A stretch of 60,485 bases of DNA, the filler included. It is 4 parts of 4 records of this genome, joined end to end, with 100 filler letters (N's around TTAATTAATTAA, not from the genome) between each part and the next. Parts side by side here need not be neighbours in the genome. Positions count along the whole stretch, not along the records: positions 29,638 to 53,683 come from SRR2962707_2650; 3 more parts are not named here. One strand, given 5' to 3'. Under the pieces are notes generated by a model. It saw nothing but the letters and a program-made list of their open reading frames with translations, was not told the origin of the DNA and made no database searches. Below, in pieces: positions 1-46,513 of this stretch. Position 1 is the stretch's first letter. Every line of letters starts with the position of its first letter. The translations under genes and the position numbers were made by a program.

Positions 1-61
1 GGGAATTGTGTGCTGTTTGGTTTGGCTTGAATGTGTGACTGGATGCTTTGCGTGCCACCAG

Positions 62-1513: not shown

Positions 1514-1702
1514 CACCAGTATCAATTAAGGCGGCAATTTCAAATTGCATGTCGCTCTAAACTATATCTTACTATTATTTTTTTTTAATTGTCGAATCAT
1601 GCAACAATAAAAATCCCAACATCCCTGGTGCAGCCAGGAGTCGGTTTCTTCAAGTGCGGAAACACGATTGTGTCAAGTACTGGCAAAAAACGGCGACGGT
1701 TT

Positions 1703-4700
1703 TCACTCGGCTCGGTCCGCCATTTTCTGTGCAAGCAAAAGCACCAACTTGGTATGTAACTTCGTCGACAGTCCATGTTCTGATGCAAAACGGCCAGCCG
1801 CAGTCTGGGCAGTGTCCCAATCGTAGACCACCTGGCGGCATATCATTTGATGAAAGATAATAATGAACAGTTAGGGGCCCATGCACTCAACGGCTCGAAC
1901 AGCAACATTGCCCGCTGTGCCCAGCAGGCGAATTAGGTCAGGAAGTTGAAACCACGCACCAGCTTGCCCTCGCCATTGTTGGGCAGTTGGATCTCCACAA
2001 TGATACTTTCATGCTCAGGACCGCGCGGATGAACAGCTTCCGCGTCGAAATGAGCATCAACGACAGCCGATGCTGCAACAGCATGGTGGTAATCATTAAC
2101 ATGTAATGTCAAAATTGAAAAAATGGCCAGCTCACGTCAGCAAACTCCCACTGCTGGCAGGAACAATGCAAAACACAGCAAGCGCCATCGAAAAATACAT
2201 ACTCAGTTCGTCAACTGCTGCATCCCCTGACGGTGAGCCAAGCGACTCCAATGCCTCGGAAGGATGTGGACCGTCCTCCCCGTCATCGAGCTCCTCACTG
2301 TCAAGACCGTACACGTCGTCATCGTATTCTTCTTCCTCCTCGTCATCATCGGTCACAGACAGCAACGACGATTCATCCGCCATGACATCCACTGCGGCAT
2401 GGTGATGGCCTTGCAGCTCTGCCTGCTTGGCAGCAGCCGTGCCGTAACTACCGCCCTCGTCGTCAGAGTTCCCACCATGTGCGGCAGCACCTTCGTCATC
2501 GATATAAATACCACTCCTCATGAATTCGCTTCTGGTTCGTAGAAGACCTTTCGACTCGCTGCTGTTGCCGTTGTCGCTCTCGCTCCTGGTTCCGGCCTCA
2601 CCGTCAGGAACATCCTGTTCTTCGTTCGAAGCAAACTCAGTTTGCTCGTGGAGTCGAGTTTGCTCCATTTGGTCCTCTACATTTTGAGCCGGGAAAGCGT
2701 CGTCACTATCGTCAGTGTCTGGTGTACCTGCTGCCTCCTCATGTTTTGATGATGGGCTGTGATCTACCGCACCGGAAGGCCGTGTCGCCCCATTGAGCTG
2801 GGCCGGCTTTTCGCCCCCGATCTGATGTACAACATCTTTGCCATCCACGCTTGTGTTGTCCCTTTCAGAATGTTCACTTTCGCTGCCATCACGGACAGCA
2901 TTTTGAGCTTCCTTGCGACGTGGGGAAATCCCGAGGGCTTCCATTTCATGTGCCGAAAGAATGCGCGAACCCGCCTCGAATTCTGGTTGCATAGGGCGCC
3001 GGGCATGCTGCCCGTGCCGCAGAGTAGAAGCAGAATGAAGATTTGAGGAAAAGCCTGCTCTTCGCTTTGCACGAGCTGCAGCTGCTGCTGTCATGCCCAA
3101 ATCTGCGACTTCCACGCCACGAACTGCAGCTTGCTCGGCATACTGGACGTCTTCCTGCAGCGTGAAAGGCAGGCAAACAGAGTGAAAAGCTCCACCACCA
3201 CCAACAACAACAGTCAACTACACACGCCACAATAGGCATAACAAATAGTAGGGATAGATTCGTACAGCCTCAAGCTGCTGAATCTTTTTTAGCCGTTTTT
3301 CCACGCGCCGCTCGGCGCGTTGAAACGGCTGCTGCAGCACGTTCCCGCTCTCATCAACTTTCCAATTAGAGCGATCCTTCACTCGCCCGAGGTTTTCTAG
3401 TGCCAGAGCGTGCTCCCGACGCTCTTCTCTCGCCTTTTCTTGAAATTCCAAGTGCCGGGAGAATCCGATGATCTGCCATTGCGATCAGTTTGAACGCACG
3501 CACATTGAGAAGCACTCGAGCAAGTGCCGCTTTCGGACGCAAGGCAAATCAGCACAACAAGCAAGGTCGCATGTTGCAGTGTAGCCGACCTGACTTGTAT
3601 CGACATCCGATTTTTCCGGCACTTGAGGAATCTTTGGCTGAAAAGTGCAGGCTTTTTGCAAGACCTCTTCCTCTTCTCGCTTGCGCGCTGCAGCGTCCGC
3701 TCGAAGCTGGCAAAGCAAGAAGACCGGGTACTGTGAGCGCGCACAACTCAAGAGTAGATGGCACGGCATTAAAAGTCATTTGGCTCACAATGAACGGAAC
3801 ACGAACCTGGGCTTGGCGGCTCATTATCTTGCCTGCGCGCGCTTCTTCGATCAGCTTTTGCACCTTGGGTGGAACAGGCTGTAGCTTCGGCTGGAAAGTG
3901 GCCTCCGCCATTCGCTCCTCCTCCACAGTCTGCCCAAGAATTGCCGTAGCACCAGGTAAAACAGTGCCGTATTTCTCAACGGAGCCGACGCAACCATGAG
4001 CGCGCAAGTGGAAGCGCCACAGAAAGAGCAGTCAGGAAGAAAGCATGCACACCTCCGCAATCGCCTTCATGCGCCGCGCCCGAGCCAATTCGTCGTAATA
4101 CAATCTATCGACCATGGAGTGTCTCGACAAACGTCGAGCAAGGTGACGCGACTTAGAGTTGACATGCGGTCGATATCTATGGAAATAACAATGACCCACG
4201 CAAAGATTTATCATGGAATCAGCGAGCGGCAGATCCTGAAGTGTCGCTGCTAAACAACAAAAATGGGAAACAACGCTACATGAGCACATACGTGACCGAT
4301 TCCTCAAATTGCTTCTCAAGTTCTTTCCGCCTCTCTTTGCGTCTTTGGCCTGCGGAGTCGCGATGTCCACCAGCATGATGCGTCGTGGTCCACCGCCTAC
4401 AAACGAATTCAAGCCCGCAACGACGAGGAACGCAACATAATTAACAAATTGGCGATCAAATCCGAAAACGCAACGAAAATCACCTGCAGCAGCCAGCAAC
4501 GCCGCACCTGTTTTGAAACAATTCGTGCATGTGACGGCAAGAAACCCGGACAGGTCGCTTCCGTCGTTGTTGCCGATTCTTCCTGCTTTCATGCTCCCCT
4601 TCAGTCCCAGCAGGTTTGGGTTCGTTCTCGTCGTGTACAGCGTCGCAATGACTGTCACGCACATCCTTGCTTTCACTTTGTCCAACATTGTTACTGTTCT

Positions 4701-7212
4701 CCTCAGCGTGTTGTCCATCAAGCTTCACGTCCTGATTGAGTTGCTGGCGGCGGGCTGCGTCTCGGTGCTCACAAAAGTACCTTTGCGGCCCTAGAGCCAT
4801 CAGGGACGCGAGAAAACGAAGCAACAAGTCTGTCGGGAGAAAGTCACCCTCCACTTCGTGTGCAGCGGCACCTGCCCGAGGCGACCCTAAGTCTCCTTCC
4901 GTATTGCTCGCGGCGAGTCCGCTTGTCTCGCCCACCTCCGCATCAGCGGACTGCTGGGTTTTACCACTACCACCTCCACCACCGCCGTCAACCTGCTCCT
5001 CAGATTCCGCGCTACCATTGTCACAGCTTCTGCCCTCACGCTGCTTGGTTGGCAGAGACACAGCCATGAGATCGTCCCACACACGCTGGCCGAGGTCTGA
5101 GAGCGGAAGAGTCCTTTGCATTGGCGAGGGCAGCTCAAACGCGATGCTTGAAGCGTCCTCTGATTCAAGATCAATAGGTCTTGCCCCATCACTGCTGCGC
5201 GAAACGAGCCCATCATCGTCGGGCAAACCCGAGTAGTTCGCCGAGTTGAAGTGCGAGGGCCCACCCCCAACCCCGCCGACCACGACGCTGCCGGTGCGAA
5301 AAGTAGAAGCCAACGAACCCGGGGCAGTTGTCTCCACATCATTGTTGGCGTTGATGTGGCCACCCTTGAGGCTTCGCGTGGCAATGAAATCATCCACCAG
5401 GAATCCAAGTTCCGTCATTACATCCTCAAACTCGCGACGAGTCATGCGTTCCCCTGCAAACACACTGGAAAGCTCACGGTGCAGCCGACGTCCGATGAGC
5501 TCACGGTTCATCTTCTGGCTGCTAATTTGGTGGTGGGACTGCTGCCGACGGGTGGTTTCTTCGAGCTTGGCAAACCGAGCGCCTCGGGCCGGTCGGTCTT
5601 GCCGCCGCCGCCGCCGATTCTCACGTGACGCGAGGCCACCGCCCCAAGCGCCACGACCGGCACCTCCTCCGCGCGTGACGCGCCGCCTGCTCCGGGAGCT
5701 GGCATGGGATTGGGGTGTAACGGGCGACGACGCGCCTCTCGCCGTGCCGCCACTCCTAGACTCGGCTGCTTCACGCTTGGCACGGTGGGCTTTAAGCTGC
5801 TCGTAGAAGGTCTTGCGGCGTTTTTTCTCCTCATCCGTCAGAAGCGTGGGGGAGAAAGGGTTGCGGCGGAGCGAAGGGGCCAACGCGCCACTGCCACGCC
5901 ACCCTGGCTTATCATTCGTATGGCTCTTCTGGGCGTCTTTTCGGTCTCCCACACGCTGGGTTTGAACAGCCTCCACAGCCCTGCCACTGTTGTTACTGCT
6001 TTCTTGCTTCGGACTACGCACCGGCGGTGCCCTTGGTGACTTTTCTACTGCTGGCGCTGGTGACTGGTACAGCCTATCCCAAAATGGGGCCTCTCGCTCT
6101 CCGTCACCGCTCTTGGGTTCCTCGCCACCACTGTCTTCCCGTCCACCACGGCCACGCTGCACGTTGCGCTGGCGCTTTCCGGCCCCACTGCCCTGCTCAC
6201 CGTGCCCAGCCGGTGCTGCCGCCGCTGTGGTGGCTGCAATGCGGTGGAAACTCCGTGTGCTGGGCGTGGTATCGGGCTGGAAAGTGCACACTTGAGCAGT
6301 TTGTCGTCCCACCTCGCTCTCGATTTCTGCCAAATGGCGCTGGCGCGCAAGGTCGGCATTGCGAAATCTGTCCATCGCTGTCCGACCCCTGGAACTGGCC
6401 ACGTGCGGGTTGCGCGCAAAGTAGTCTGTAATGGCAGGTTTGAGCGTCAACTCTCGCTGTTCCGCCTCCTCGAGCTGTCGACGCAGCGCATCCGTGCGGT
6501 GCTGCCGAGCCGATGCGCGCTCTCTCACAGCAGGTCCATGACCTGACGATGCAGCAAAGGTACTGTCTTGAGACATGCGCGCTTGGTGCTTCTGCACCGC
6601 AAGAGGTGTTGAGCCGCGGCTTCCTGCAATGGCCGCCGCTGCCTTGCGCCTGCCCCCGCCCGGCCCGAACCCGTTGCCGCGGCCACGACTGGAAGCAGCG
6701 GCGGCGCGTCCTCCTGATCTAACGGGTTTGCCGGTCCGTCTGCCCGCGACATGCGTCGCTCGACGAGCCACCACGCTGCGACCAGTTGCAGCGGGTGACG
6801 CCGGCGACCGCAGGGTCGAGGCAAAGTCCTGGAAATCTCCCGCGTCGTACCTGGACGACGCAGCAGCCCGGGTCGACGACAGAGTGGTCGGTGACATGAC
6901 CGTGCTGGCACGCGGCAAATGTGCCCCCCTCCTCTGCCCATCGCGGTAAGTGCTGCCATGCCCGTTGACAACGTCATTCTCAAGGCTATCCTCTTGTTGG
7001 TGTTGTTGCCGCCGTTGTTGCAGTTGGCGCTCAAGTTGCTGCTGCTGGAGGTGTCGCTGCTGTATCTGCTCTCGAGCCGCGTGCTCGACCTCCGCGTTGA
7101 TTGTACCGACTAATGACGCAGCGAATACGATTGGAGTCGAAGCCATTGCTTCCACGCCAGCGCTCACTTCTTCGTCGAACTCGCGAAAATCCATCGGACC
7201 GGCGTCGGCCAT
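1703..7212 (-). CDS. Eukaryotic 9-exon ~1524-aa low-complexity/coiled-coil protein with repeated (C)TFxP motifs and a compact C-terminal domain
   Basis: Exons (minus) 7212-4508, 4396-4292, 4176-4053, 3929-3807, 3706-3590, 3472-3266, 3154-2203, 2072-1960 and 1831-1703. All junctions are GT..AG and phase-consistent; the exons total 4575 nt and end at TGA 1705-1703. Repeats: ELTLKP, VCTFQP, VTYRP, EATFQP, ACTFQP. Confidence 0.75.
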
Positions 7213-7243
7213 TGCGGCGCGCCAGCCGCAGTCGCAGCCGCAA

Positions 7244-7269
7244 CTGCTGCTGCTGCTGCTGCTGCTGCT
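7244..7269. repeat. (CTG/CAG)n microsatellite at contig end
   Basis: ctgctgctg... runs directly into the N spacer, upstream of the minus-strand gene start. Confidence 0.9.
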
Positions 7270-7369
7270 NNNNNNNNNNNNNNNNNNNNNNNNNNNNNNN
7301 NNNNNNNNNNNNNTTAATTAATTAANNNNNNNNNNNNNNNNNNNNNNNNNNNNNNNNNNNNNNNNNNNN
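7270..7369. other. Artificial contig-joining spacer
   Basis: N44-TTAATTAATTAA-N44 (stop codons in all six frames). Confidence 0.99.
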
Positions 7370-8908
7370 GATCACCGACAGCATGGCGTAGTAGACGATA
7401 AAGAAATGCACCGCGACGACGTTCAGCCCACCGATTTCAACGATCGCCGGGGCCAATGTCACCGCGAGGAAAATATAGGCAACGATCGCCAACCCAGCCA
7501 TGCCCATGATGAAACAGGCCAGCACCCCAAGGGCGATGATCAGATACACATTATCCCCGCCCAAAGCGACAAGCCCCGAAGTCATGGACCCGGTCACACC
7601 GGTAATGGTCAAGGCGCTGACAACAAAGGCAATCGGCAAGATGATCGCGGCGGTCTGTGTCACCAGAACGCCCACCTGCCGAAGGGTCGCAAACAGGCGC
7701 GTCGGCGTCATCATCGTGTCACGCTGCAGAAAGCTGAGGGCGATCATCATCGCACTGGCATACCACGGGGCATAATATTCCCACCGCATGTAGAGCAGGC
7801 CCCAGACCAGAAACACCATGACCGACAGGAACGGCCAGCCGCGTTTCATCACCTCGCGGGCCGATGGCAGCTTGTCTTGGGTCATCCCGACCAACCCCTT
7901 GCGCGCCGCATAGGAATCGACCTGCAAAAGCAGGCCGAAATAAAACAACAAGGACGGCAGGATCGCCGCCACCATGATGGTCGCGTAATCCACGCCAATG
8001 GTAATCGCCATCACGAATGCAATCGCCCCCATGACGGGCGGCATCACCACGCCGCCTGTGGATGCGCAGGCCTCGATCGCGGCGGCGTAATGCGGCGGGT
8101 ACCCGACCTTTTTCATGGTCGGAATGGTGATCGACCCGGTGCCCGCAATATTCGAGAAGATCGAGCCAGACAGCGACCCGAAAAACGCGCTGGCCACGAT
8201 GGATACCTTGGCCGGACCGCCCCGGTATTTCCCGAAACCCGCATTGGCCAGATCGATAAAGAACTGCCCTGCCCCCGTCGCAATCAAAACCCCCGCAAAG
8301 ACAAGGAAACCAAGGACAATCTCGGCAACGATCTTGGTGGTGATCCCCATCAACCCTTCGGTGCGGAAAACATGCGCCTCGATCATGCGTTCAAACGTAT
8401 AGGGGATACCCATGAGCAGCCCCGGGAAAAAGTCAGCGACCAGCGGGTAAAGCCCCAGCAGGAACACCACCAGCAAAAACGGGATACCGCCCGCTCGGCG
8501 CGCGAGCTCTAGCATCAGCAGCCATATCACGACGCCAGCGGGGTAATTCGTCCAGCCGGCCTGTACGATGTCCCACGCATGGGTCGAAAACCACATGCAG
8601 ATGCCAAAGCCGATGACAGCCGCGATCACGTCATAGATCGGCACGCTGCGTTGGCCCTTGATGCCGGGCAACGCGATAAATGCCGCCGCCAGAAAAATAC
8701 CGATGAAGAACCAGTAATATTGCCCCTCAATCAGACGTTTGCCGCCAATCGGCACGCCAAACGCATAGGCAAGCCCCATGCCCAAGCCACAGGTGCAAAG
8801 GGCCACAAAGGCGATGCTTGTCCATGAAAAAAGCCCCCCCAAACGCGTCGTTTCCGAGCTGGGTTCGGCATCAATATCCGGTGCTGCATGGGGTTGAGTG
8901 TCTGACAT
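7370..8908 (-). CDS. TRAP transporter fused 4TM/12TM permease (TAXI type), 3'-truncated
   Basis: Motifs RGGPAKVSIVASAFFGSLSGS, AIEACASTGGVVMPPVMGA and HFFIVYYAMLS; lies downstream of a TAXI receptor. Confidence 0.93.
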
Positions 8909-10192: not shown

Positions 10193-10812
10193 CTTTTATC
10201 CTCCCGGTTTTTTTGCATTTTCGACGGCTTTCGGGCGTTGGTTCTGCACGTGCAGATGTCCGTCAACGGCCCGAAAAGCATGTGGTTTTCCGACATCTGA
10301 ATATCGGTCAATACCCTGATTTTCAGAACAAACCCGGCACCTCCCCTTGCCGGTTACACGTGTCAGACCAAGATGAGACATCTTGGAATGATCACGACAA
10401 ATCTCGCGTTCTGCATCCGTCTCCCAAGGATGCACAACCGATTCACTCAAAAGACTAGGAGCATATTTCCCCTGCGGCAATACCGCAAAGCGGAACATCG
10501 TTTCGCAAGGGCCGACGGCGTCGGGCGAGGTAAATCATGCGCGCCGTGCGTGTATTTTGACACCTAAACATCTTATTTTATTAGTGATCTCGCTCACAGG
10601 AACTCTGCTGAAATGCCCGATCTGCCCTTGCACAGCGTGGGCAATTCACGGCTTTTCCCGCAAGTGACGTTACGTGCCGGTCTTTCGACACCCGTGCCCG
10701 CGATGCCGCGACGGTGCTGCAGGATCACGGCTGATAGCGCTTGCTTACTTATTCGCCGCAATGAGGGTACTGTGTGAAAACAGGAACGCCCGCCACAGCA
10801 AGGACCGAACCC

Positions 10813-29537: not shown

Positions 29538-29637
29538 NNNNNNNNNNNNNNNNNNNNNNNNNNNNNNNNNNNNNNNNNNNNTTAATTAATTAANNNNNNN
29601 NNNNNNNNNNNNNNNNNNNNNNNNNNNNNNNNNNNNN
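29538..29637. other. Artificial contig-joining spacer
   Basis: N44-TTAATTAATTAA-N44. Confidence 0.99.
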
Positions 29638-30096
29638 CTGGTTCACCGGCCAGTTCCACGGCGTGATAAGCGCGCAGACCCCGATGGGTTCGCGCAGGAG
29701 CCGCACGTTCCCCTCCATCGCGCGTTCGAAGTCGAAAACCTTCAGCGCCTCGATGACAGCATAGAGATGCTCCGATCCCGCAGCCGCCTGCGCCTCGCGC
29801 GATAACGTCACCGGCGCGCCCATTTCCAGCGTGATCGCCGCCACGAATTCCGCGTAGCGCCGCCGGTAGATGTCGAGAATCCGGTTGAGAAGATCGAGAC
29901 GTTCCTGCTTGCCCGTCGCGGCGAAGGCGGGAAAGGCGTTGCGCGCGGCGGCAATGGCGGCGTCCACATCCGCCGCCGTCCCGAGCGCAACCGACCCATA
30001 CGTTTCGCCGGTCGCCGGGTTGTAAAGCGGCTGGGCGGGGCGGGCCGAAGCGTCGGCCCAGGCGCCGCCGATGTAATATTTGTCGAAACTTTTCAT
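29638..30096 (-). CDS. Aldehyde dehydrogenase, 3'-truncated
   Basis: YIGGAW, NPATGE, REPIGVCALITPWNWP. Confidence 0.93.
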
Positions 30097-35472: not shown

Positions 35473-36813
35473 TCAGCTCATAGAGCCGAGCTTCTTCGCC
35501 ACGCGCTTCACTGCCGTCGTGATGACGACAAAGGAAACATAGAGCGTGATCGGAATATTGAGCAGCCCGATGGCGAGGAAGATGCCGGGAATCGAGTATC
35601 CCTCATCCGAAAGCCAGAAGATGAAGCCGGACGCTCCCACCATCGCAAGCGCGTTCAGCACATTGTTGACCGCGATCAGCCGCGAGCGATATTGCGGCTC
35701 GCTCCGCGCCTGCAGGATCGCATAGAGCGGCACGATATAGAGCCCGCCGCAAACCGCGATGCCGAACAGGTCGCCGACGATGCGCCAGTTCTCGGCAACG
35801 CTCAGAAAAGCGGCGATGCCGATGAACTCGCCCGTCCCGGTGGTCAGCAGCGGTTCGCTCGCGAAAAACAGGTCGGCCGAAAAGATCGTGATACCGAGCG
35901 CGCCCACCGGCACGTAATAGTCCCGCACCTTGCCACCCAGCAGCTTGTCGCAAAGCAGCGAGCCGATGCCGATGCCGATGGAAAAGATCGTCAGCAGCAT
36001 CGCGACGATCTGCTCGTTCCCGCTCAGCACATCGCGCGAGAAAACCGGGAACAGGATGATGAAGACCGAACCCACCAGCCAGAACCACGAAATCCCGATG
36101 ATCGAGCGGAAGATCGGCAGGTCGCGATATCCGAAGGCGATCATGCGAAACGTCTCGGACACGAAGTTGTAGTTGATGGTCATGCCGGGGCTCGCCGCCG
36201 GGCGGTCGGGAATGCGCCGCGATGTCAGCCAGCCAAGGGCGGCGACGGCGATGCAGAGGATCGAAACCGCCGTTAGCCCATAGGTCCGCAGCACCAGCAG
36301 GCTGCCGAGCAGCGTGCCCACAAGGATCACGAGAAAAGTCGCCGTCTCGATCAGCGCATTGCCGCCCACCAGCTCTTCTTCTTCCAGAAGCTCCGGCAGG
36401 ATGCCGTATTTCAGCGGCCCGAAAACCGCCGATTGCGCGCCCATGAAAAACAGCACCGTCAGCAGCATCACCGGGTTTTCAAGCGCGAAGCCGATAGCCG
36501 CCGCAATCATGATGACGATCTCGAAGAGCTTCACTTTTCTGATGAGGCCGGCCTTCGGCAGCTTGTCGGCAAACTGGCCGGCCGTCGTCGAGAACAGAAA
36601 GAACGGCAGGATGAAAATGCCGCCCGCCAGCGCGACCAGTGTCTGCGTGTCGATCCCGTCCAGGCTCGCCGCCGCCGAATAGGTGATGAGGATGACGAGC
36701 GCGTTCTTGAAGACATTGTCGTTGAACGCGCCCAGCGCCTGCGTCACGAAGAGCGGCAGGAAGCGCGGCGAAGCGAGCAGCCTGAACTGCGAATAATGCT
36801 TGTGATCGCTCAT
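35473..36813 (-). CDS. LplT-like MFS transporter (stand-alone MFS domain of Aas-type acyltransferases)
   Basis: RFLPLFVTQALGAFNDNVFKNA, FGPLKYGILPE, GGNALIE, IVPLYAILQ..RSRLIAVNN; ATGA-coupled to the upstream acyltransferase. Confidence 0.88.
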   Translation of the reverse strand: MSDHKHYSQFRLLASPRFLPLFVTQALGAFNDNVFKNALVILITYSAAASLDGIDTQTLVALAGGIFILPFFLFSTTAGQFADKLPKAGLIRKVKLFEIVIMIAAAIGFALENPVMLLTVLFFMGAQSAVFGPLKYGILPELLEEEELVGGNALIETATFLVILVGTLLGSLLVLRTYGLTAVSILCIAVAALGWLTSRRIPDRPAASPGMTINYNFVSETFRMIAFGYRDLPIFRSIIGISWFWLVGSVFIILFPVFSRDVLSGNEQIVAMLLTIFSIGIGIGSLLCDKLLGGKVRDYYVPVGALGITIFSADLFFASEPLLTTGTGEFIGIAAFLSVAENWRIVGDLFGIAVCGGLYIVPLYAILQARSEPQYRSRLIAVNNVLNALAMVGASGFIFWLSDEGYSIPGIFLAIGLLNIPITLYVSFVVITTAVKRVAKKLGSMS

Positions 36814-37520
36814 GCTCCCTCTCCCACCAGCCGCGCGGTTTCCGCCTCGATCGTGTCTTCGAGCACGCGCATGAAAGTATCCTTGTCGAGGCCCGTGCGG
36901 ATCGGCTCCAGGAACGAAAGTACCACCTTCCCCGGCGTCTTGCGCCACGCCCGGCACTGCCAGCAGAGCCCCACATTGGTTGCCACCGGCGTCACCGGCA
37001 GGTTGAGATCGGTATAGAGGTGATAGACGCCGATCTTGTAGCGTTCGCGGTCGCCGACCGGCACGAGCTGCCCCTCTGGGTAAATGAGAATGTGACGGCC
37101 ATTGTCATAGGCGCGCTGCGCCGCCGTGCTCAGCTTGTTCCGCTCCGTGCCGCCGCCGCATGTGTCGACCATGATCATGTCGAGCTTGGTGAGAATGCGG
37201 CCGATGGCCGGATAGTCGAGCAGGTCTTTCATGGCGACGGTCGCGATCTGCGGCAGCAGCGACATCACGAGAATGCCGTCGGAAAAGCTCTGATGCTTCG
37301 AGGCGATGAGGCTCGGCCCTTGCGTCGGAATATTCTCGCGCCCGCGCACTTCCATGCTTATGCCGGCCACATGCCTGAGCAGCCACACGATCCCCTTCGC
37401 CCACCAGTGCAGCACCGCCGCCAGCGGCTTCGGCGAGGGGAGATAGGTAAGCGGCAAGCAGGCAATCGCGACAAGCGCCGTGAAGCCGTAAAAGGCGATG
37501 TTGAACAGGAAGGATCGCAT
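36810..37520 (-). CDS. plsC: 1-acyl-sn-glycerol-3-phosphate/lysophospholipid acyltransferase (PlsC family)
   Basis: KHQSFSD (HX4D), IYPEG, PVATN; start ATG 37520. Confidence 0.88.
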   Translation of the reverse strand: MRSFLFNIAFYGFTALVAIACLPLTYLPSPKPLAAVLHWWAKGIVWLLRHVAGISMEVRGRENIPTQGPSLIASKHQSFSDGILVMSLLPQIATVAMKDLLDYPAIGRILTKLDMIMVDTCGGGTERNKLSTAAQRAYDNGRHILIYPEGQLVPVGDRERYKIGVYHLYTDLNLPVTPVATNVGLCWQCRAWRKTPGKVVLSFLEPIRTGLDKDTFMRVLEDTIEAETARLVGEGA

Positions 37521-37531
37521 GGGGTTTTCCC

Positions 37532-38113
37532 TTATTTTCCGGCCGGTTCGAGATGCAGAATGTCGATTACGCTTTTCGCAAAGAGATCGCGATGCTTGAT
37601 GAGCGGTCCCTTTATCCGGCCGAATGCCTTGAAGGTAACGGCCTGGAGCACGATGCCGAGCGCCATGGCGGCGCGCACATTCGGGTCGTCCTTCGGAATT
37701 TCCTTCCGCTTCATCGCCGCTTCGATGACGTCGACAACGACGCTCACGGGGTTCGGCAGCGTCGGATCGAAATAGCGCAGCAGCGTGTATTGATTGACCT
37801 GGTGATAGCGGAAGAGAAGCCAGTCCCCGTCGGCCATGTTGCAATAGACGGTAACGATGGCGCGCGCCTGCTCGTCGATATGGTCGTGCTGCGTCGCCGC
37901 CGTCTTGATCGCTTCTGCGAGGCTCGCATGCTGCCGCTTGAAGAGGTCGCGGGCGAGTGCGTCCTTGCTCTCGAAGTGGCGATAGATCGTGCCTTCGGAA
38001 ATCTTTACCGCCTCGGCGATCTGCTTCGTCCGCGTTTCCATGATTCCCTGGGAAACGAAAAGCTCCAGGGCGGCGCGTTCGATGTCGGTCTTTGTGTTGG
38101 GGCCGCGGGGCAT
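37532..38113 (-). CDS. TetR-family regulator
   Basis: AALELFVSQGIMETRTKQIAEAVKISEGTIYRHFESKD HTH. Confidence 0.93.
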   Translation of the reverse strand: MPRGPNTKTDIERAALELFVSQGIMETRTKQIAEAVKISEGTIYRHFESKDALARDLFKRQHASLAEAIKTAATQHDHIDEQARAIVTVYCNMADGDWLLFRYHQVNQYTLLRYFDPTLPNPVSVVVDVIEAAMKRKEIPKDDPNVRAAMALGIVLQAVTFKAFGRIKGPLIKHRDLFAKSVIDILHLEPAGK

Positions 38114-38162
38114 TCGGATCTCGCTCTTCTCTGGTCAAGTGAGTCGGCTGCGGAAAATCGTA

Positions 38163-38816
38163 TCAGGTTCCCTGTAGCTTGGGCGCACCCGCATTGAGGG
38201 TCAGAAGCAGCCGCACTTCGCCGAGCCCGATCCACCCGCGGCCGCTGTGCAGCCGGCGCAATTGCGCCAGCGGCGCGGAAAGGTCGCGTCCGTCATAGAG
38301 CAGGGCGCTTTTCGTCATCATTGCCGCCACGCGCTTGCGCTCGGCGGCCATGGCACCCATCAGCTTCTCGCTCATCCGGCGCGCGGCGTCCGCCCAGACC
38401 GGCCTTGCGCCGGTCAGCGTGTCGCGCAGGCGCTGGCCGAGCTGCTTCGCGTCCTTCTCGATCTTCGCCCAGCCGTGCCGGGACGTATTGATCCGTTTGC
38501 GGACGAGATTGAGTTCCGTCTCGCAGGCGAGCTTGCGGGCTTCCCACCGGGCAACCGTCTCCGCCAGCTCTCCCGCCGTCTTCGCCGCGAACGGGATGGC
38601 CGTCAGTTCGAGCAGCCGCGCATCGATCCGCGCCAGCGCCGCCTTGTAGCGAAGCTCGCTTTCAAACTGCCGGTCGAGCGCCTTTGTCCCGTCCGCGATC
38701 TTCTGGTGCGCGCTCCGCAGTTCGGCAAGCGCCTTGCTTGCGCGCGCCTTCAGCAGCGCGCGCTTCGATGCGCTCATGCTCGCGATCAGGTTCCTCAGGC
38801 TGCGAAGGGTGAACAT
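38163..38816 (-). CDS. Coiled-coil protein, probable divergent PspA/IM30 (YjfJ-like)
   Basis: 217 aa, AAGGAG RBS, N-terminal amphipathic helix and long heptads. Segments ARIDARLLE..ELAETVARWE, SRHG and DGRDL..LA recall YjfJ-type PspA paralogues (from memory, unverified). Confidence 0.55.
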   Translation of the reverse strand: MFTLRSLRNLIASMSASKRALLKARASKALAELRSAHQKIADGTKALDRQFESELRYKAALARIDARLLELTAIPFAAKTAGELAETVARWEARKLACETELNLVRKRINTSRHGWAKIEKDAKQLGQRLRDTLTGARPVWADAARRMSEKLMGAMAAERKRVAAMMTKSALLYDGRDLSAPLAQLRRLHSGRGWIGLGEVRLLLTLNAGAPKLQGT

Positions 38817-38863
38817 CTCTGCTGCTCCTTTAAACGGGCGCTCCCTCGCGCCCCGATATCCCT

Positions 38864-38892
38864 AAAGTAAGTGAGCACACACTTTCTGTCAA
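38864..38892 (-). promoter_or_regulatory. Sigma70 promoter with overlapping palindromic operator
   Basis: Minus strand TTGACA (38892-38887), 17 nt, TACTTT (38869-38864); operator AAGTAAGTG-AGCACA-CACTTTCTG at 38865-38888 fills the spacer. Confidence 0.75.
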
Positions 38893-38944
38893 GACGGAAA
38901 TCGCGCTGGCAGCGGATTTTCCTGCCCTGGTTAATTTATTGTTT

Positions 38945-39598
38945 TTACGGGAGTTTCAGGGGAGGGCGTCCCGGCCGGCGCCGGTCGCGCAGCCGGGGCA
39001 GCAGGCGCTCCGCCGCCAGAAAGAGCAGTCCCGCTAGCGCGCCGCCCGCATGTCCCTCGAAGGCGGCGGGCCAAGGCGTATAGAAAAAAAGCGTCTCCGC
39101 CGTCACCGCCTCATAGGCGATCTTCATCAGCGAGAGGAGGCCGATCAGCGCAATGAAGCCGCTCCGTTTCTGCCACCATGCCTCCACGATCATTACCGCC
39201 CAGAGCGCGTTCAGCACGCCCGAGAAGCCCGCATAATAGGAAAGCTGCGTCGGGCTCAGAAAGATCGCCGCGTCGATTGCGACGATCCCGGCGGCGATGA
39301 TCCCAGCCTGCCGCGAATAGGAAATGCCCTCATCGTGCCGCGCCATCACCGCGAGGATGAGATAGGCGAGCGCGTTCCAGATCAGATGCTGGAAATTCAG
39401 ATGGACGAGATGTCCGGTCACGAGCCGCCACAATTCGCCATCCATGATCTTCGCGCGGTCGAAGATCAGCAGCTCGCTTGCCGCCGCACCGATGTAGTGG
39501 ATGAGCGCCATCGCGCCCGTCAGCAGAAGCGGAAACCATGGCAGGGAGACCCCGCCATGGTTCCGTTCTTTCGCGTTGCATGCGCGCGGCATGGTCAC
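38945..39598 (-). CDS. rrtA: Rhombosortase (rhomboid intramembrane protease)
   Basis: GELWRLVTGHLVHLNFQHLIWN, catalytic GFSG and HAGG; GTGA-coupled to a GlyGly-CTERM protein gene. Confidence 0.9.
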   Translation of the reverse strand: MTMPRACNAKERNHGGVSLPWFPLLLTGAMALIHYIGAAASELLIFDRAKIMDGELWRLVTGHLVHLNFQHLIWNALAYLILAVMARHDEGISYSRQAGIIAAGIVAIDAAIFLSPTQLSYYAGFSGVLNALWAVMIVEAWWQKRSGFIALIGLLSLMKIAYEAVTAETLFFYTPWPAAFEGHAGGALAGLLFLAAERLLPRLRDRRRPGRPPLKLP

Positions 39599-41694
39599 GC
39601 CTTGGCGGCCCGCTGGCGCACCCGCGCCAGATGGAACAGGCCAAGCAGCGGCAGAAGCGCCGGTCCCGCCGCGCCGCCACCGCCGCCACCGCCAAGCCGC
39701 ACGCCGCCACCGTTGCTCTGGTGCGCGCCTGTCGAGGCAACATGCGTGCGCGGGCCGTTGCCCACCGGCGCCGAGGCGAAAGACGGTGCCGTGCTCTCCC
39801 GCGCATTGCGCGCATCGGCTTCCGTCGTCAGCCTCTGCTGGTTGTTCCGGGCAATGCCTTCCTGCGCGAAGATTTCCTCGCGCACCACCACCATCGAGGT
39901 GTAGGGCGTCAACAGCCCGAACTCGAGCGCCGTGTCCGTCACCGCCTGTTCGGAGTCCGGGTCCGTTCCGATGACGGCCATCTGGCGCATTTCGTCCTCG
40001 ATGCGCGAGAATGCCCAGAGCCGTTCGATTTCCGGGTGCTGGCTCGCGACGTCGGGCATGTCGAGCGTGGCTTCGTAGCTTTTCTCCCTGCCGTTCAACT
40101 TGCCGGTCACGCGAAAGGTCGCCGGGCCGGAGTCCCAGTAATGGCCGAACACCACGAGCTGTTCGCCGCGGAAAAGCCCGCCCTTCAATTCCGGCGTCAC
40201 ATCCGCCGTCCGCACGCCATCGACCTCGACTTCAATGTCGCTCAGTGCGTGATGCGAAAGCCGCGTCACGGCGGTCATCAGCCGTCCGGCGATGTCGTCG
40301 CTGTTCGAAACGCTCATCGACGTGCCGCCCGAGATCGCGGCGAGATGTTCGAGCATCGGCCGGTCGGCACCGTTGCCCATCACCACCGTGAAGAGCCGCA
40401 CATCCTGCGCCGAGGCGAGATCGATAAAGTCCTTCCGCTGAAGCGGTCCGACATTGGCAACGCCGTCCGTGATCACAACGACGCCGCTCGGCCGGTCCGG
40501 GTCGAGCTCGTCGAAACCTTCCGCCAGTCCCGCATAGAGATTGGTGCCGCCATCGGCGCGCATCGGCCGGAGTTCCGCAAGCGTCTGGTCGATCTCGTTC
40601 TGCGAAGCGCCGCGATAGCCGCTGAAGAGTTCATGCGCCCTGTCGTTGAAGAGCACGATGCGAAAGCGGTCCTGCGGCGGCAGGCTCGCAAGCGTGCGGC
40701 CGATGCCTTCGGTCAGCGTCGCGAACTTCGTCTCCATGGAGCCTGAGCGGTCGAGAACGAAAGTCCAGTCGCGCCCGCTCGTGATGGCGTTGGTGTCTTC
40801 GCCCGGCGTCAGCACCGCCATGAAAGTCCCGCGCGCGCCCGGCGCCGCCTTGTAGCTCAGCACATCGAGGGAGCCCGACAGTCCCGGCGTCTGCCGCCAG
40901 TAGAGCGCGACATCCTTGTTGAGCGCCGCCATGGAGACCCGCGCAACCGCGCTGGAAACGTCGTCTGCCCCGCTGTTGCTTCCGCGCGCGAGCGCGACAT
41001 GCCAGGCACCGTCCGCGCTTTGCGTGATCTGCGCATCGGGATGCGCTGGCAGGCGCAGCGCCTCCACCGGGTAGGCAGTGCGCAGCGTCATGTCGAGGCT
41101 GAAAGTCCCGGTCACCGTGTCGTTCATCTGCCAGAAGGAAGAGACCGCAGGATCGTCCGTGCCGCCTTCCTCCAGCGGATAGACATAGCGGCCCATGCCG
41201 GCATCGAGCTTCGCCGGCTGCACATAGCTCAGCCGGATGCGCACATCGGAGTTCGCTCGCACCGGCCAGACCGACATCTGGAAGCGCATGAAGTCTTCCT
41301 GTTCGGCCAGCGCCGTTTCACGGTTTGCCGTCTTCTCCCTTTCGTAGAGCGTCCGCGCGTCCTTGCGCTTCAGCACTTCGGCCGTCACCGGCTTGCCGTC
41401 GATCCAGTAGGTGAATTCGCCGACCGCCGCATGCTGCGGCACCGGAAAGGCGTAGACCGCCTCCACGTCACTCCCGCCTGCATTGCGGAACGTCTGCTCG
41501 ATGGTCGTGGTCGCGTAGCCATCCTCGATCAGCACGTCGACATGATGGTCTTCGATGGCGAGCGGGATGGAGGAATTCGCCGGGGTCAGCAGCCCGGCGG
41601 CGTCCGCCGGGGCCGTGGCCCAGATTAGCGCGGGCAGGGCGAGCGCCGGAAGCAGGCCCGCCTTGCGGATGAAACCGCCTGAAAGACTTCGCAT
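39595..41694 (-). CDS. Secreted VIT + vWA domain protein with GlyGly-CTERM tail
   Basis: Signal peptide (..ADA-A); VIT segment TIEQTFRN..EAVYAFPVP; MIDAS DRSGS, ITDG; LLTPYTSMVVV; C-terminus GGGGGGGAAG-PALLPLLGLFHL-ARVRQRAAKA (Gly motif, TM, basic cluster). Confidence 0.92.
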   Translation of the reverse strand: MRSLSGGFIRKAGLLPALALPALIWATAPADAAGLLTPANSSIPLAIEDHHVDVLIEDGYATTTIEQTFRNAGGSDVEAVYAFPVPQHAAVGEFTYWIDGKPVTAEVLKRKDARTLYEREKTANRETALAEQEDFMRFQMSVWPVRANSDVRIRLSYVQPAKLDAGMGRYVYPLEEGGTDDPAVSSFWQMNDTVTGTFSLDMTLRTAYPVEALRLPAHPDAQITQSADGAWHVALARGSNSGADDVSSAVARVSMAALNKDVALYWRQTPGLSGSLDVLSYKAAPGARGTFMAVLTPGEDTNAITSGRDWTFVLDRSGSMETKFATLTEGIGRTLASLPPQDRFRIVLFNDRAHELFSGYRGASQNEIDQTLAELRPMRADGGTNLYAGLAEGFDELDPDRPSGVVVITDGVANVGPLQRKDFIDLASAQDVRLFTVVMGNGADRPMLEHLAAISGGTSMSVSNSDDIAGRLMTAVTRLSHHALSDIEVEVDGVRTADVTPELKGGLFRGEQLVVFGHYWDSGPATFRVTGKLNGREKSYEATLDMPDVASQHPEIERLWAFSRIEDEMRQMAVIGTDPDSEQAVTDTALEFGLLTPYTSMVVVREEIFAQEGIARNNQQRLTTEADARNARESTAPSFASAPVGNGPRTHVASTGAHQSNGGGVRLGGGGGGGAAGPALLPLLGLFHLARVRQRAAKA

Positions 41695-41735
41695 GTTCGT
41701 CTCCTCTGGTTGAGCGGTGTCGGGGTAGATGATCC

Positions 41736-41790
41736 ATGTAAGTGGTTACACACTTACATTTCGGTAATGTAAGCGAGCACCCGCTTTCTT
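41736..41790. promoter_or_regulatory. Tandem palindromic operators upstream of the VIT/vWA gene
   Basis: ATGTAAGTG-GTTACA-CACTTACAT (41736-41759, perfect 9-bp arms) and ATGTAAGCG-AGCACC-CGCTTTCTT (41767-41790); same motif as at 38865. Confidence 0.8.
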
Positions 41791-41980
41791 CAAGAGAAAA
41801 TGCCCGGCAACGGCGCGCTGATGCTGAAAAGGGCGGCTTTCCGCTAGGAATCCGGCCGAAAAAGATCGAATGGAAAAGCGAAGCTGAGGAAAGCCGCGAA
41901 CATATCGGGCGGATGGATGAAATCCTCGCGAGCGCCTATATAGGACCCATCGCCATTCTCTTTCATCTTCGAGGTTCTCA

Positions 41981-43093: not shown

Positions 43094-46000
43094 TCACCAC
43101 GTATCGATGAACGCGCGGGTGGGTTTCGCTTCCATCGGCGGCAGCGATTTCAGCCCGCGCGTTATCCAGTGCCGCGTCTCCGCCGGATCGATCACCGCAT
43201 CGATTTCGAGGAACGACGCCATGTTGGTCGCCTTCCCGTTCTCGTAATAGCGGTCGACCATCTTGCGGTAGAAGGCGTCGCGCTCTTCGAGGTCTTCGAT
43301 CGCCTCCATCTCCCGGCGATAGCCGAGCCGGACCGCACCTTCGAGCCCCATCCCGCCGAACTCGCCCGTCGGCCAGGAGATGTTGAAGAACGGCGCGTGA
43401 AAACTCCCCGCCGTCATCGCCTGCGCGCCGAGCCCGTAGCCCTTGCGCAACACCACCGCAAACAGCGGCACGCTCATATTCGCCGCCGTCACGAACATGC
43501 GGCTGACGTGGCGCACCTGCGCTTCCTTCTCGATCTCCGGTCCCACCATGAAGCCCGGCGTGTCGCAGAGCGACAGGATCGGCAGCCCGAACGCATCGCA
43601 AAGCTGCATGAAGCGCGCCGCCTTGTCCGCCGCCTCCGCGTCGATGGCGCCGCCGAGATGATACGGGTTGTTCGCCATCAGCCCCATCGGGCGGCCTTCC
43701 ATGCGAATGAGCGCCGTCTTGATGCCAATGCCGAAATCCTTGCGCAGCTCCAGCACCGAGCCCTTGTCCGCCAGCCCCTCGATCACCTTGTCGACGTCAT
43801 AGGCGCGCAGCCGGTTCTCCGGGATCGCGTGGCGCAGCTCCCGCTGGTCGCCCGCCTCCCACTGCTCCACCGGCCCCTGGAAATACGACAGATACTTCTG
43901 GCAGGCGTCGATCGCCTCTTCCTCGTCCTTCACGAAAATATCGATCACGCCGTTCTTGCGGTGAACCTCCGCCGGGCCGACTTCCTCCGGCGTGTAAACG
44001 CCGAGCCCGCCGCCCTCGATCATCGCGGGCCCGCCCATGCCGATATTGGAATCCGCCGTCGCGATGATGACGTCGCAGCAGCCGAGCAGCGCCGCATTGC
44101 CCGCAAAGCACCGCCCCGCCGTCATGCCGACAAGCGGCACCTTGCCCGATAGCGTCGCAAACGTATGGAAGCTCGGCGTGTCGAGCCCGGCAACGCCCGC
44201 CGTGTCCGTGTCGCCCGGCCGTCCGCCGCCGCCTTCCGCGAGCAGCACGATGGGCAGCTTCTGGTCCCGCGCCAGAAACAGCATGCGGTCCATCTTCTTG
44301 TGGTTCATCGCGCCCTGCGTGCCCGCGAACACGGTGAAGTCGTAGCCCATCACCATCGCGCGCGCCTTCTCCTCGCCGAAGAGCGAGGCGTTGACGGTAC
44401 CGATGCCGGAAACAAGCCCGTCCGCCGGGCTCATTTTCACAAGCTCCTCCATTGAGCGCCGCCTGCGCTGCGCGGCCAGCGCCAGCGCGCCATATTCGAT
44501 GAAGCTCCCCTCGTCGCAGAGATGGTCGATGTTCTCGCGCACGGTCCGCTGGTTGCGCTTGCGCCGCCGCGCGACAGCATCGGGCCTGTTCTCGTCGAGC
44601 CCCACCGCGTGCCGGTCGATGACGTGCTGCAGGTCGGGGCGGATGTAATCGGGATCGACCGCTTCTTCGCTCACCGCCGCCGCGTCGTCGCCCGCGCCCT
44701 CTTCGATGAAGAGGATCGGCTCCCCCTCCATCAGCGTCGCGTTCTGAACCGCCGCAATCTTCCGCACCGTGCCGCCGAAAGGTGCCGCGATGGTGTGCTC
44801 CATCTTCATCGCTTCAAGCACGGCGATCTGCTGCCCCTTCGCCACGCGCGCGCCTTCCGCCACATCGACGGAAATGACCTTCCCCTGCATCGACGAGGGA
44901 ACGGGCGTCGTCCCCGCCGGTCCTTCCACATGCTTCGCCGCCGCTGCGCCCGCGCCGTTGCCGCCGGTGAAGTAGCGTCCGGGCGTCGCCTCCGCCTTCG
45001 CGAGTTCGCCCGCATGGTCGGCGATGAAGCCCGTGCTCACCTCGTTTGCCTGCACGTCGTCCCGCGCCAGCAGCGCCTGCAGGAACGAAAGGTTCGTCGT
45101 CACGCCCTCAATCTGGAATTCGCTCAGCGCGCGCCGCGCCCGCGCGACCGCGTCGCCATAGGAAGGCGAGGGCGAATGCGCAATCAGCTTCGCCAGCAGC
45201 GAGTCATAGTTCGGGCTCGTGCGATATCCGGCATAGCCGAACGTGTCGACGCGAATGCCCGGTCCTGATGGCGGCGCGAAACTGTTGAGCACGCCCCCCG
45301 TCGGCACCGCTTCTCCCGTCTCGCTCATCCGCTCCATGTTGACGCGAAGCTGGATTGCATAGCCGCGGGGGCTCGGCGTCTCCGTCAGCCCGACCTCCTT
45401 CAGCGTCGCACCCGCCGCGATCCGAAGCTGCGTCTTCACAAGATCGACGCCCGTCACTTCTTCGGTAACGGTATGCTCCACCTGCAATCGCGGGTTCGCC
45501 TCCATGAAGGCAATCGCCGCATCTGCCGACTTCGCTTCCATGTCGATCAGAAACTCGAACGTGCCGAGCCCCTTGTAGGCCGCAGCCCTCGCGAGCTTCC
45601 GCGCCGCCTCCACCAGCCGCTTGCGCATCGCGCCGTCCAGCGTCGGGCTCGGCGCGATTTCCACCACCTTCTGGTTCCGCCGCTGCAGCGTGCATTCGCG
45701 CTCGCCGAGATCGATCACGTCTTTCCCGTCGCCCACGATCTGGATTTCGATGTGCCGCGCTTTCCGCACCAGCTTCTCGGCATAAAGGTCGCCGCTGCCG
45801 AATGCCGCCGTCGCTTCCGAGCGGCATCGTTCATAGGCTTCTGCCAGATCCTTCGCGTCGCTCACCGGCCGCATGCCGCGCCCGCCGCCGCCCGCCAGCG
45901 CCTTCAGCATGATCGGCGCGCCGCCGAGCTTTTCCATAAAGGCCCGCGCTTCGTCGAGGCTTGTCGCCCCGTTGGTGCCCGGAAAAAGCGCCACGCCCTC

Positions 46001-46369
46001 TTTCTCCGCCAGCGCTCGTGCCGCGGCCTTGTCGCCGAACAGTCTCAGCGCCTCGGGCGAAGGTCCGACAAAGGTAATCCCTGCCTTCGCACACGCGTCG
46101 GCAAAGTCCGCATTCTCGCTCAGGAAGCCGTATCCCGGATGGATCGCGTCGCATCCGGCTTGCCTCGCCTCCGCCACGATCTGCGCAATGTCGAGATAAG
46201 CCGCCGCCCCCGTTCCGGTCAGCGGCAGCGCCTCGTCGGCAGCGCGCACATGCAGCGACAGCGCATCATCCTCCGCATAGACGGCGACGGTACGCAATCC
46301 GAGTTCGGAACCCGCGCGCGCGATGCGCACGGCAATCTCGCCGCGATTGGCGATCAACAGGCTTTTCAT
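43094..46369 (-). CDS. Single-chain biotin-dependent acyl-CoA carboxylase (BC-BCCP-CT, LCC-like)
   Basis: LIANRGEIA, HPGYGFLSE, GGGGRGMR, EANPRLQVEH (BC); EAMKME (biotinyl Lys); DFTVFAGT, CDTPGFMVG (CT). Confidence 0.93.
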   Translation of the reverse strand: MKSLLIANRGEIAVRIARAGSELGLRTVAVYAEDDALSLHVRAADEALPLTGTGAAAYLDIAQIVAEARQAGCDAIHPGYGFLSENADFADACAKAGITFVGPSPEALRLFGDKAAARALAEKEGVALFPGTNGATSLDEARAFMEKLGGAPIMLKALAGGGGRGMRPVSDAKDLAEAYERCRSEATAAFGSGDLYAEKLVRKARHIEIQIVGDGKDVIDLGERECTLQRRNQKVVEIAPSPTLDGAMRKRLVEAARKLARAAAYKGLGTFEFLIDMEAKSADAAIAFMEANPRLQVEHTVTEEVTGVDLVKTQLRIAAGATLKEVGLTETPSPRGYAIQLRVNMERMSETGEAVPTGGVLNSFAPPSGPGIRVDTFGYAGYRTSPNYDSLLAKLIAHSPSPSYGDAVARARRALSEFQIEGVTTNLSFLQALLARDDVQANEVSTGFIADHAGELAKAEATPGRYFTGGNGAGAAAAKHVEGPAGTTPVPSSMQGKVISVDVAEGARVAKGQQIAVLEAMKMEHTIAAPFGGTVRKIAAVQNATLMEGEPILFIEEGAGDDAAAVSEEAVDPDYIRPDLQHVIDRHAVGLDENRPDAVARRRKRNQRTVRENIDHLCDEGSFIEYGALALAAQRRRRSMEELVKMSPADGLVSGIGTVNASLFGEEKARAMVMGYDFTVFAGTQGAMNHKKMDRMLFLARDQKLPIVLLAEGGGGRPGDTDTAGVAGLDTPSFHTFATLSGKVPLVGMTAGRCFAGNAALLGCCDVIIATADSNIGMGGPAMIEGGGLGVYTPEEVGPAEVHRKNGVIDIFVKDEEEAIDACQKYLSYFQGPVEQWEAGDQRELRHAIPENRLRAYDVDKVIEGLADKGSVLELRKDFGIGIKTALIRMEGRPMGLMANNPYHLGGAIDAEAADKAARFMQLCDAFGLPILSLCDTPGFMVGPEIEKEAQVRHVSRMFVTAANMSVPLFAVVLRKGYGLGAQAMTAGSFHAPFFNISWPTGEFGGMGLEGAVRLGYRREMEAIEDLEERDAFYRKMVDRYYENGKATNMASFLEIDAVIDPAETRHWITRGLKSLPPMEAKPTRAFIDTW

Positions 46370-46513
46370 GGGATAGGGCCTCCCTTGCCCCGGAATTTCT
46401 TTTATCAATTTGAGTAGGGAGGTCGGCGGGGCCTGTCAAATCCTCGCGGCGCCGATAGCCGGCCGGGAGGCCGCCGGAAACGGACAGCTCCTTCGAATCT
46501 TTCTCCGTTCATT

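Follow-up and report, generated by a model that had tools for sequence, protein, structure and literature searches.

In the stretch of DNA analyzed here (60,485 bp of joined sequence, N-spacers included; hereafter the window, along which all coordinates count and whose 60 kb our motif scans cover), six minus-strand genes at 35473-41793 form two adjacent units that are likely co-regulated by one TetR protein, as judged from their shared upstream sequences. One unit pairs a VIT-vWA protein with a rhombosortase, and the other encodes a small helical protein, the TetR regulator, an acyltransferase, and an LplT-like transporter of the major facilitator superfamily (MFS). We hold it somewhat more probable than its opposite that these are two operons under one TetR, through which an anchored protein and lysophospholipid retrieval would be co-produced. 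The six genes have a high third-position GC content and are flanked by ordinary metabolic genes, and the named homologues of the helical protein, rhombosortase, and TetR belong to Parvibaculum sp. A preliminary description of this DNA, made from the sequence alone, had already arranged them as six codirectional genes in two coupled units, and this arrangement is confirmed by the open reading frames (ORFs), by Pfam and NCBIfam matches, and by gene overlaps: the VIT-vWA stop overlaps the GTG start of the rhombosortase gene, with an ATG 3 nt further on, and an ATGA overlap joins the acyltransferase gene to the MFS gene. From TetR to acyltransferase, 11 nt separate the TAA stop from the ATG. The genes and candidate operators are as follows.

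39595..41694, minus strand: VIT-vWA gene, 699 amino acids (aa); Pfam VIT 97 bits, VWA 56 bits
38945..39598, minus strand: rhombosortase gene; TIGR03902 105.3 bits against a cutoff of 84
38163..38816, minus strand: helical protein (CC) gene, 217 aa, all-helical, pI 11.0; first gene of the TetR operon
37532..38113, minus strand: TetR gene, TetR_N only; PF00440 52.1 bits against a cutoff of 24
36810..37523, minus strand: acyltransferase gene, LPLAT/PlsC family; PF01553 61.2 bits against a cutoff of 23
35473..36816, minus strand: LplT-like MFS gene, 447 aa
41769..41788, no strand: candidate operator O1, core AAGCG-N6-CGCTT; 75-94 nt 5' of the VIT ATG
41736..41759, no strand: candidate operator O2, perfect 9+6+9 palindrome ATGTAAGTG-N6-CACTTACAT with 0 mismatches; 44-63 nt 5' of the VIT ATG
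38867..38886, no strand: candidate operator O3; 51-70 nt 5' of the helical-protein ATG

The pattern AAGYG-N6-CRCTT has exactly three matches in the 60,485 bp (38869-38884, 41740-41755, and 41771-41786), all of them in the two regions upstream of the VIT-vWA and helical-protein genes. Shuffled sequences contain a mean of 0.42 matches, and three were reached in 1 of 100 shuffles. With up to three mismatches allowed, the longer consensus GTAAGTG-N6-CACTTAC returns the same three sites only, a number that none of 100 shuffles reaches; taken over both patterns, shuffled sequence holds 0.4-0.5 matches. Because both patterns were built from these sites, the window counts are partly circular; independent support for the operator comes from its conservation in two closely related genomes (loci L001 and L002). 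Each of these has three operator sites in positions equivalent to those of the window, with an O2 core that is identical in L001 and differs by one mismatch in L002, and in spacer alignments the operator blocks appear as conserved islands while the rest of the L002 spacer has diverged. In both the window and L001, the VIT upstream region also serves an OYE flavin-oxidoreductase gene of divergent orientation; both VIT-side operators persist in L002, which is without this gene, and O1 and O2 thus belong to the VIT promoter. By eye, O1 is positioned between TTGAAG and TACATT, whereas TTGACA stands directly 5' of O3 and TACTTT at its 3' end. A terminator scan found none between the rhombosortase and helical-protein genes. 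The preliminary description had placed one and the same palindrome before each unit; the sharing holds, and a look upstream of the orthologues finds it at equivalent places in L001 and L002 with further matches in locus L018, but the VIT side has two copies, not one.

These loci belong to a comparison set of 80. A profile of 19 aligned rhombosortases, run against contigs from one genome per species, gave 336 relatives, the best 80 of which were taken; they are the rhombosortases nearest the query, a sample that does not represent the many-target Vibrio type, and span Alpha-, Gamma-, and Deltaproteobacteria, Acidobacteriota, and Opitutaceae. Here the original proposal of a six-gene system is not supported, as all six genes occur together only in L001 and L002, that is, in three closely related genomes including the window. 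Identity of these two to the window is 82-95% for TetR, acyltransferase, and MFS, and the remaining proteins are more diverged (VIT, 78%; rhombosortase, 69-84%; helical protein, 65-67%).

We do, however, observe the combination of TetR, operator, VIT-vWA, rhombosortase, and LplT-type gene in a second lineage. Locus L018 (“Proteobacteria bacterium”), whose VIT protein groups with gammaproteobacterial VIT proteins on the tree, carries on one strand, in this order, TetR, VIT, rhombosortase, and a 1157-aa MFS-acyltransferase-ligase fusion that starts 80 bp past the rhombosortase gene and exceeds the PRK08633 cutoff (1474 versus 1221 bits). Its TetR shares 27% identity with the window TetR over 179 aa (E = 3e-16), with a similar recognition-helix stretch (EGALYRHY against EGTIYRHF). 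Just before the ATG of this TetR stands GTAAGTGAACGCTCACATAC, 1 mismatch away from the operator consensus, and ATAAGTATGTAAACATTTAC, with 3 mismatches, precedes the VIT start by 17-21 nt. Scanning 1.35 Mb with up to three mismatches returns 21 sites, 12 of which are the promoter sites of the window, L001, L002, and L018. The nine that remain (2-3 mismatches) are scattered, and the 450 bp upstream of VIT starts contain none of them. The operator thus co-occurs with the window-type TetR in all four loci that have this TetR, which makes the protein a candidate binder of O1-O3. The proposal, in the preliminary description, of one TetR over both units finds support in an operator shared in three genomes and in its recurrence in L018. 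As a separate observation in L018, an inverted repeat (AACAACTCTTTT ... AAAAGTTGTT) with a T-run behind it was seen by eye at 10560-10625, between rhombosortase and fusion, and may be a terminator or attenuator.

Beyond its TetR_N domain the regulator is distinctive, with a C-terminal domain that matches no Pfam TetR_C family. Its solved-structure matches cover mostly the DNA-binding domain, and the few longer ones (including Bacillus FadR) are too weak to name a ligand. Elsewhere in the set the cassette is controlled by other proteins. In 19 loci a divergent TetR with TetR_N and TetR_C_33 domains is found just upstream of VIT, a type that the window TetR resembles in the helix-turn-helix (HTH) region only. 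A further 26 loci have an XRE-type HTH_26 protein of ~250 aa upstream of VIT, at 53-220 bp from the VIT ORF in 22 of them; this protein (for example L008:6972-7712 and L063:7039-7785) is the commonest immediate VIT upstream neighbor in Gammaproteobacteria and combines an N-terminal Cro/C1-type HTH with a remainder that has no annotation and no NCBIfam match. The TetR_C_33 loci (within L004-L079) carry two to four copies of TTGAAC-N3-GTTCAA upstream of VIT. This motif is present in 19/19 such loci and 11/57 others. Counted from 400 bp before to 100 bp after each VIT ORF start (36.6 kb in all), there are 85 sites, versus 34 in 1.22 Mb elsewhere; the motif seems to be the cassette's usual operator and is not that of the window. 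The VIT-vWA/rhombosortase cassette is thus generally a tightly repressed module, mostly with a dedicated repressor and several operators, and its product would therefore be made only under a specific condition.

Of the 80 loci, 7 have an LplT-type gene at most 10 kb from the cassette. The acyltransferase and MFS genes are split in L001 and L002, as in the window, and a fusion gene is found 80-91 bp downstream of the cassette on the same strand in L018 and L026. L013 has a TetR-LplT-Aas operon divergent from VIT-rhombosortase across a single control region, and the two Sedimenticola loci (L024 and L033) have a convergent fusion gene 1.7-2 kb downstream together with a separate PF01553 gene. In these last two we found no operator common to the VIT promoter and the PlsC/LplT-Aas operon, and the region taken as PlsC upstream looks coding. 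If each genome had one LplT-type gene at a random position, chance would put 0.21-0.35 of them into the 1.06 Mb of flanking DNA that was examined. The trait requires five changes when mapped on a quick LG+G4 tree built from 75 VIT proteins. Two LplT/Aas subfamilies are involved, one PRK06814-like and split (the window) and one fused (PRK08633, Gammaproteobacteria), a difference that favors independent recruitment in the two groups. Together these placements are suggestive of a recurrent link between the cassette and LplT-type lysophospholipid recycling.

Other lipid genes are found next to the cassette as well. Neighboring ORFs were clustered, and Pfam annotation was run on 147 of the 209 cluster representatives. 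In L044, L062, L070, L072, L075, and L080 (Halieaceae-like), the gene of a ~440-aa membrane acyltransferase (Acyl_transf_3, PF01757) directly adjoins or overlaps the stop codon of rhombosortase, a trait requiring two changes on the VIT tree, and in L034 such a gene is located 1.4 kb upstream of VIT. Alpha/beta hydrolases occur near the cassette in L002, L023, L062, and L070, while L065 and L011 have a PLD-like gene and PlsY there, respectively. The neighbors are otherwise heterogeneous.

The VIT-vWA and rhombosortase genes constitute a conserved, dedicated sorting cassette of an already described kind. A VIT-vWA homologue directly precedes rhombosortase in 78/80 loci, the exceptions being L068, which ends at a contig edge, and L074, which has no VIT; the VIT gene of L030 and L076 is divided over two ORFs. 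In the window rhombosortase, S124 (GFSGVLN) and H181 (HAGG), invariant across 19 aligned sequences, match the Ser (GxSG) and His which, following the rhomboid literature, we take to be catalytic. An alternative ATG at 39592 yields the 215-aa form found in the protein database. The VIT-vWA protein itself has a signal-peptide-like N terminus, a vWA domain with a DxSxS motif, and a GlyGly-CTERM-like tail, GGGGGGGAAGPALLPLLGLFHLARVRQRAAKA, with Gly-rich, hydrophobic, and basic parts. A crude heuristic for such three-part tails passes 69/75 VIT tails and is narrowly missed by that of the window (hydrophobicity 1.6, where >1.6 is required), and the orthologous tail in L024 scores 15.4 against the cutoff of 15.5 for TIGR03501, the GlyGly-CTERM model.

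Bacterial VIT/vWA “vault protein” homologues are known to carry GlyGly-CTERM, LPXTG, or PEP-CTERM tails, and rhombosortase adjoins its target in 16 of 21 single-target genomes (Haft & Varghese 2011, PMC3237569). For VesB of Vibrio cholerae, rhombosortase cleavage exposes a Gly bearing a moiety that contains glycerophosphoethanolamine and may be phosphatidylethanolamine (PE), with both the transamidase step and the lipid's identity described as still to be established (PMC6219818). By analogy, the unit in the window probably lipid-anchors an adhesin-like envelope protein.

The solved structures nearest to the VIT-vWA protein are inter-alpha-trypsin inhibitor heavy chains. In these eukaryotic proteins a cut close to the C terminus is accompanied by covalent transfer to a carrier, a possible deep parallel to VIT-vWA anchoring. 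Also on the side of the cargo, L028 (4704-7422) has a sortase gene and a second VIT-vWA gene divergent beside its rhombosortase/VIT-vWA cassette, two sorting systems for the same cargo architecture.

Regarding the lipid genes, the labels PlsC and LplT given in the preliminary description hold at the family level only, judging by profile scores. The acyltransferase scores 55.7 bits against TIGR00530 (PlsC), under the cutoff of 102.95, and is similarly close to the fused Aas-type acyltransferase domain (PRK08633, 51 bits, versus 56 bits for TIGR00530), so that it is best described as a putative LPLAT-family enzyme, not as PlsC. Its sequence can be read to contain an HX4D-like motif, HQSFSD, and a YPEG motif. 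The MFS protein best matches the fused model PRK06814, of which it covers positions 4-432 of 1140 with 448.8 bits; it aligns at full length with PRK11195 (LplT; 19-426 against 5-391 of 414) but at 109.7 bits misses the cutoff of 297. In Gram-negative bacteria LplT-Aas flips lysophospholipids inward and re-acylates them, lyso-PE being generated from PE by Lnt and PagP, and fused LplT-Aas forms exist that are uncharacterized (PMC11416262).

The first gene of the TetR operon had been described as PspA-like, with an ESCRT-III-like role in membrane repair. We rejected this identity for the helical protein, as Pfam, profile, PDB, and fold searches were all negative: PF04012 (PspA/IM30) gives no Pfam match at E up to 0.01; the family profile finds no PspA or Vipp1 among PDB sequences at E up to 10, where XseB is best (E = 0.16); and Foldseek with the AlphaFold model (pLDDT 73.7; a three-long-helix bundle plus a disordered tail) returns nothing at E ≤ 0.001 and no PspA or Vipp1, with CdvB (archaeal ESCRT-III) at E = 0.087 and TM 0.24. 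Against NCBIfam it matches SMC only (E = 0.0015), and an ESM Atlas search has a best score of 0.82, below the useful range. Its relatives form 12 clusters, its own included, in 5.8 billion proteins, every named one being Parvibaculum, and its profile has only 11 matches in 1.84 billion representative proteins. The protein was not found in L018 nor in the other 77 loci outside the window lineage. It is thus a very basic orphan, almost confined to Parvibaculum-like genomes.

In the model we favor, operon 1 would produce a VIT-vWA protein that is secreted and ends in a GlyGly-CTERM-like tail, together with its translationally coupled rhombosortase, which, as for VesB in V. cholerae, would cleave the tail at its glycines so that the protein stays attached to a lipid of the glycerophosphoethanolamine type. 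Operon 2 would provide the lineage-specific helical protein, TetR, the LPLAT acyltransferase, and the LplT-like flippase, the last two as a split, ligase-less counterpart of LplT-Aas that may flip lysophospholipids inward and re-acylate them. TetR would repress its own operon via one GTAAGTG-N6-CACTTAC site and operon 1 via two, until a ligand, most plausibly a lipid, releases both operons together. Binding of the motif by TetR, its role as repressor, its response to a ligand, and any dependence of anchoring on the lipid genes are what we infer.

Several observations weigh against this model. A consensus promoter scan of the window called no promoter at the operators, the hexamers given above having been picked out by eye only, and for this genome the operator scan spans only 60 kb. 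TIGR03501 has no match on the last 50 residues of the window VIT-vWA protein at E up to 10. Most cassettes are under other regulators, TetR_C_33 proteins in 19 loci and XRE proteins in 26. The four gammaproteobacterial LplT lineages (L013, L018, L026, and L024/L033) all fall within one 17-row clade of the tree, and on a cautious count of two origins the Poisson P(≥2) is 0.02-0.05, compared with ~1e-5 for five. In 73/80 loci no LplT-type gene is found in the fetched DNA, and the cassette therefore needs none nearby; a link of the cassette to lysophospholipid recycling is favored by an LplT proximity above chance (7/80 versus 0.21-0.35 expected) and disfavored by this majority. Finally, the transamidation proposed for VesB gives no lysolipid by-product (PMC6219818), so there is no obvious chemical reason for the coupling.

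Part of this evidence suits an explanation in which the operons are co-regulated but biochemically unrelated, a mobile cassette having landed, in this lineage, by a TetR-controlled lipid operon and taken its operators, with the two sets of proteins serving separate processes. Cassettes mostly without a nearby LplT-type gene would be expected on this account, and regulators have been swapped often (10 changes on the tree for the TetR_C_33 type, or TetR33, and 5 for XRE). The nearest outgroup, L003, has neither TetR nor LplT, and TetR orthologues form 18 clusters (≥62% identity) as against 7 for rhombosortase (≥57%), an excess suggesting that the lipid operon exists without the cassette. A chance landing fits less well with the recurrence of the four-part combination in L018 with the same operator, with its presence in other architectures in L013 and L026, or with a cassette that also attracts Acyl_transf_3, alpha/beta hydrolase, PLD-like, and PlsY genes, and we regard it as a serious but rather unlikely account of the locus. 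It is quite improbable, in our view, that the palindrome is the site of another regulator, or a shared promoter architecture, and not the operator of the encoded TetR. The window does contain at least four further TetR genes, the encoded protein is a candidate binder by co-occurrence, and O1 and O3 overlap -35/-10-like hexamers by eye; yet the motif is a dyad, the perfect 9+6+9 palindrome of O2 is downstream of the putative -10, and the motif tracks the TetR subfamily in the window, L001, L002, and L018 with no VIT-proximal site elsewhere.

The full model of the preliminary description, an envelope-stress regulon with PspA/ESCRT-III-like membrane repair, now seems very improbable. The long helices of the first protein and the appearance of CdvB among its weak fold matches speak for it, but this protein has no PF04012, PspA, or Vipp1 match and only its 11 profile matches, is confined to one lineage among the 80 loci, and neither a stress sigma factor nor a sensor gene was seen next to the cluster, nothing in or beside which indicates stress control.

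Returning to co-production of an anchored protein and lysophospholipid retrieval under one TetR, a bolder version would tie the anchoring chemically to lysophospholipid metabolism. The acceptor or the maturation product would be a lyso-glycerophosphoethanolamine species, LplT and the acyltransferase (or the Acyl_transf_3 proteins and alpha/beta hydrolases beside other cassettes) would supply, remove, or re-acylate it, and a lipid-sensing TetR would switch the unit. We consider this version improbable; if true, it would represent a bacterial counterpart of the lipid remodeling of glycosylphosphatidylinositol (GPI) anchors.

Within our literature coverage, which leaves out subscription journals, no paper was found joining rhombosortase with lysophospholipid, and the pairing of LplT and rhomboid returned only a survey comparing the transport proteins of two other bacteria, as far as its accessible text goes. 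The cassette itself is known, whereas we came across no published account, within that coverage, of its wiring to a lysophospholipid-recycling operon. By PMC6219818, the route by which rhombosortase substrates gain their glycerophosphoethanolamine-containing lipid has yet to be worked out. A one-target cassette with a simple switch and recurrent LplT/Aas neighbors offers concrete candidates and a tractable, non-pathogenic model for lipid anchoring.

The rest of the window shows further features of interest. A 1104-aa ORF at 43094-46408 (minus strand) fuses biotin carboxylase, biotinyl carrier domain, and carboxyltransferase, and a 168-aa ORF at 29590-30096 (minus strand) covers positions 1-142 of a 461-position aldehyde dehydrogenase model and may be a truncated gene. 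GC content is 0.51-0.59 over positions 1-8000, compared with 0.60-0.67 over most of the right half, and two ORFs, of 910 aa at 4480-7212 and 361 aa at 2132-3217 (both minus strand), have no Pfam match.

Autoregulated TetR repressors act at palindromic operators that overlap promoters. The window system resembles them in its TetR_N domain, its 20-bp dyad, the position of the regulator inside an operon that it would control, and the presence of more than one operator; it differs from typical members in a ligand-binding domain outside the Pfam TetR_C families, and its operator binding is predicted from motif and gene distribution. The proteobacterial sortase with a VIT-vWA LPXTG target (NCBIfam TIGR03788; PMC3237569) shares the cargo architecture and the logic of one enzyme for one target. 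TIGR03788 covers residues 52-622 of the window VIT-vWA protein at 221.3 bits, far under the cutoff of 551.65, and here the tail is without LPXTG and the adjacent enzyme is a rhombosortase, with no sortase. The cassettes of Haft & Varghese (PMC3237569) likewise place a rhombosortase next to its sole apparent target, whereas that of the window shares its operator with a lipid operon; a TetR operator and LplT/Aas or acyltransferase neighbors are not mentioned in the accessible parts of that paper.

With the V. cholerae rhombosortase/VesB system (PMC6219818), the window has in common the enzyme family and the plan of a Gly-rich, hydrophobic, and basic tail. The V. cholerae enzyme has many targets, a protease cargo, and a dependence on type II secretion; the window system, with its predicted chemistry, has a single VIT-vWA target with a tail that the curated model misses, and no secretion genes were seen in the 60-kb window. 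LplT-Aas (PMC11416262), in turn, likewise has an MFS flippase translationally coupled to a PF01553 acyltransferase. Compared with it, the window pair is ordered acyltransferase and then MFS, has no acyl-acyl carrier protein synthetase domain, reaches neither the LplT nor the PlsC equivalog cutoff, and would be under a TetR common to the sorting cassette. The fused LplT-Aas form, for its part, adjoins the cassette in L013, L018, L024, L026, and L033.

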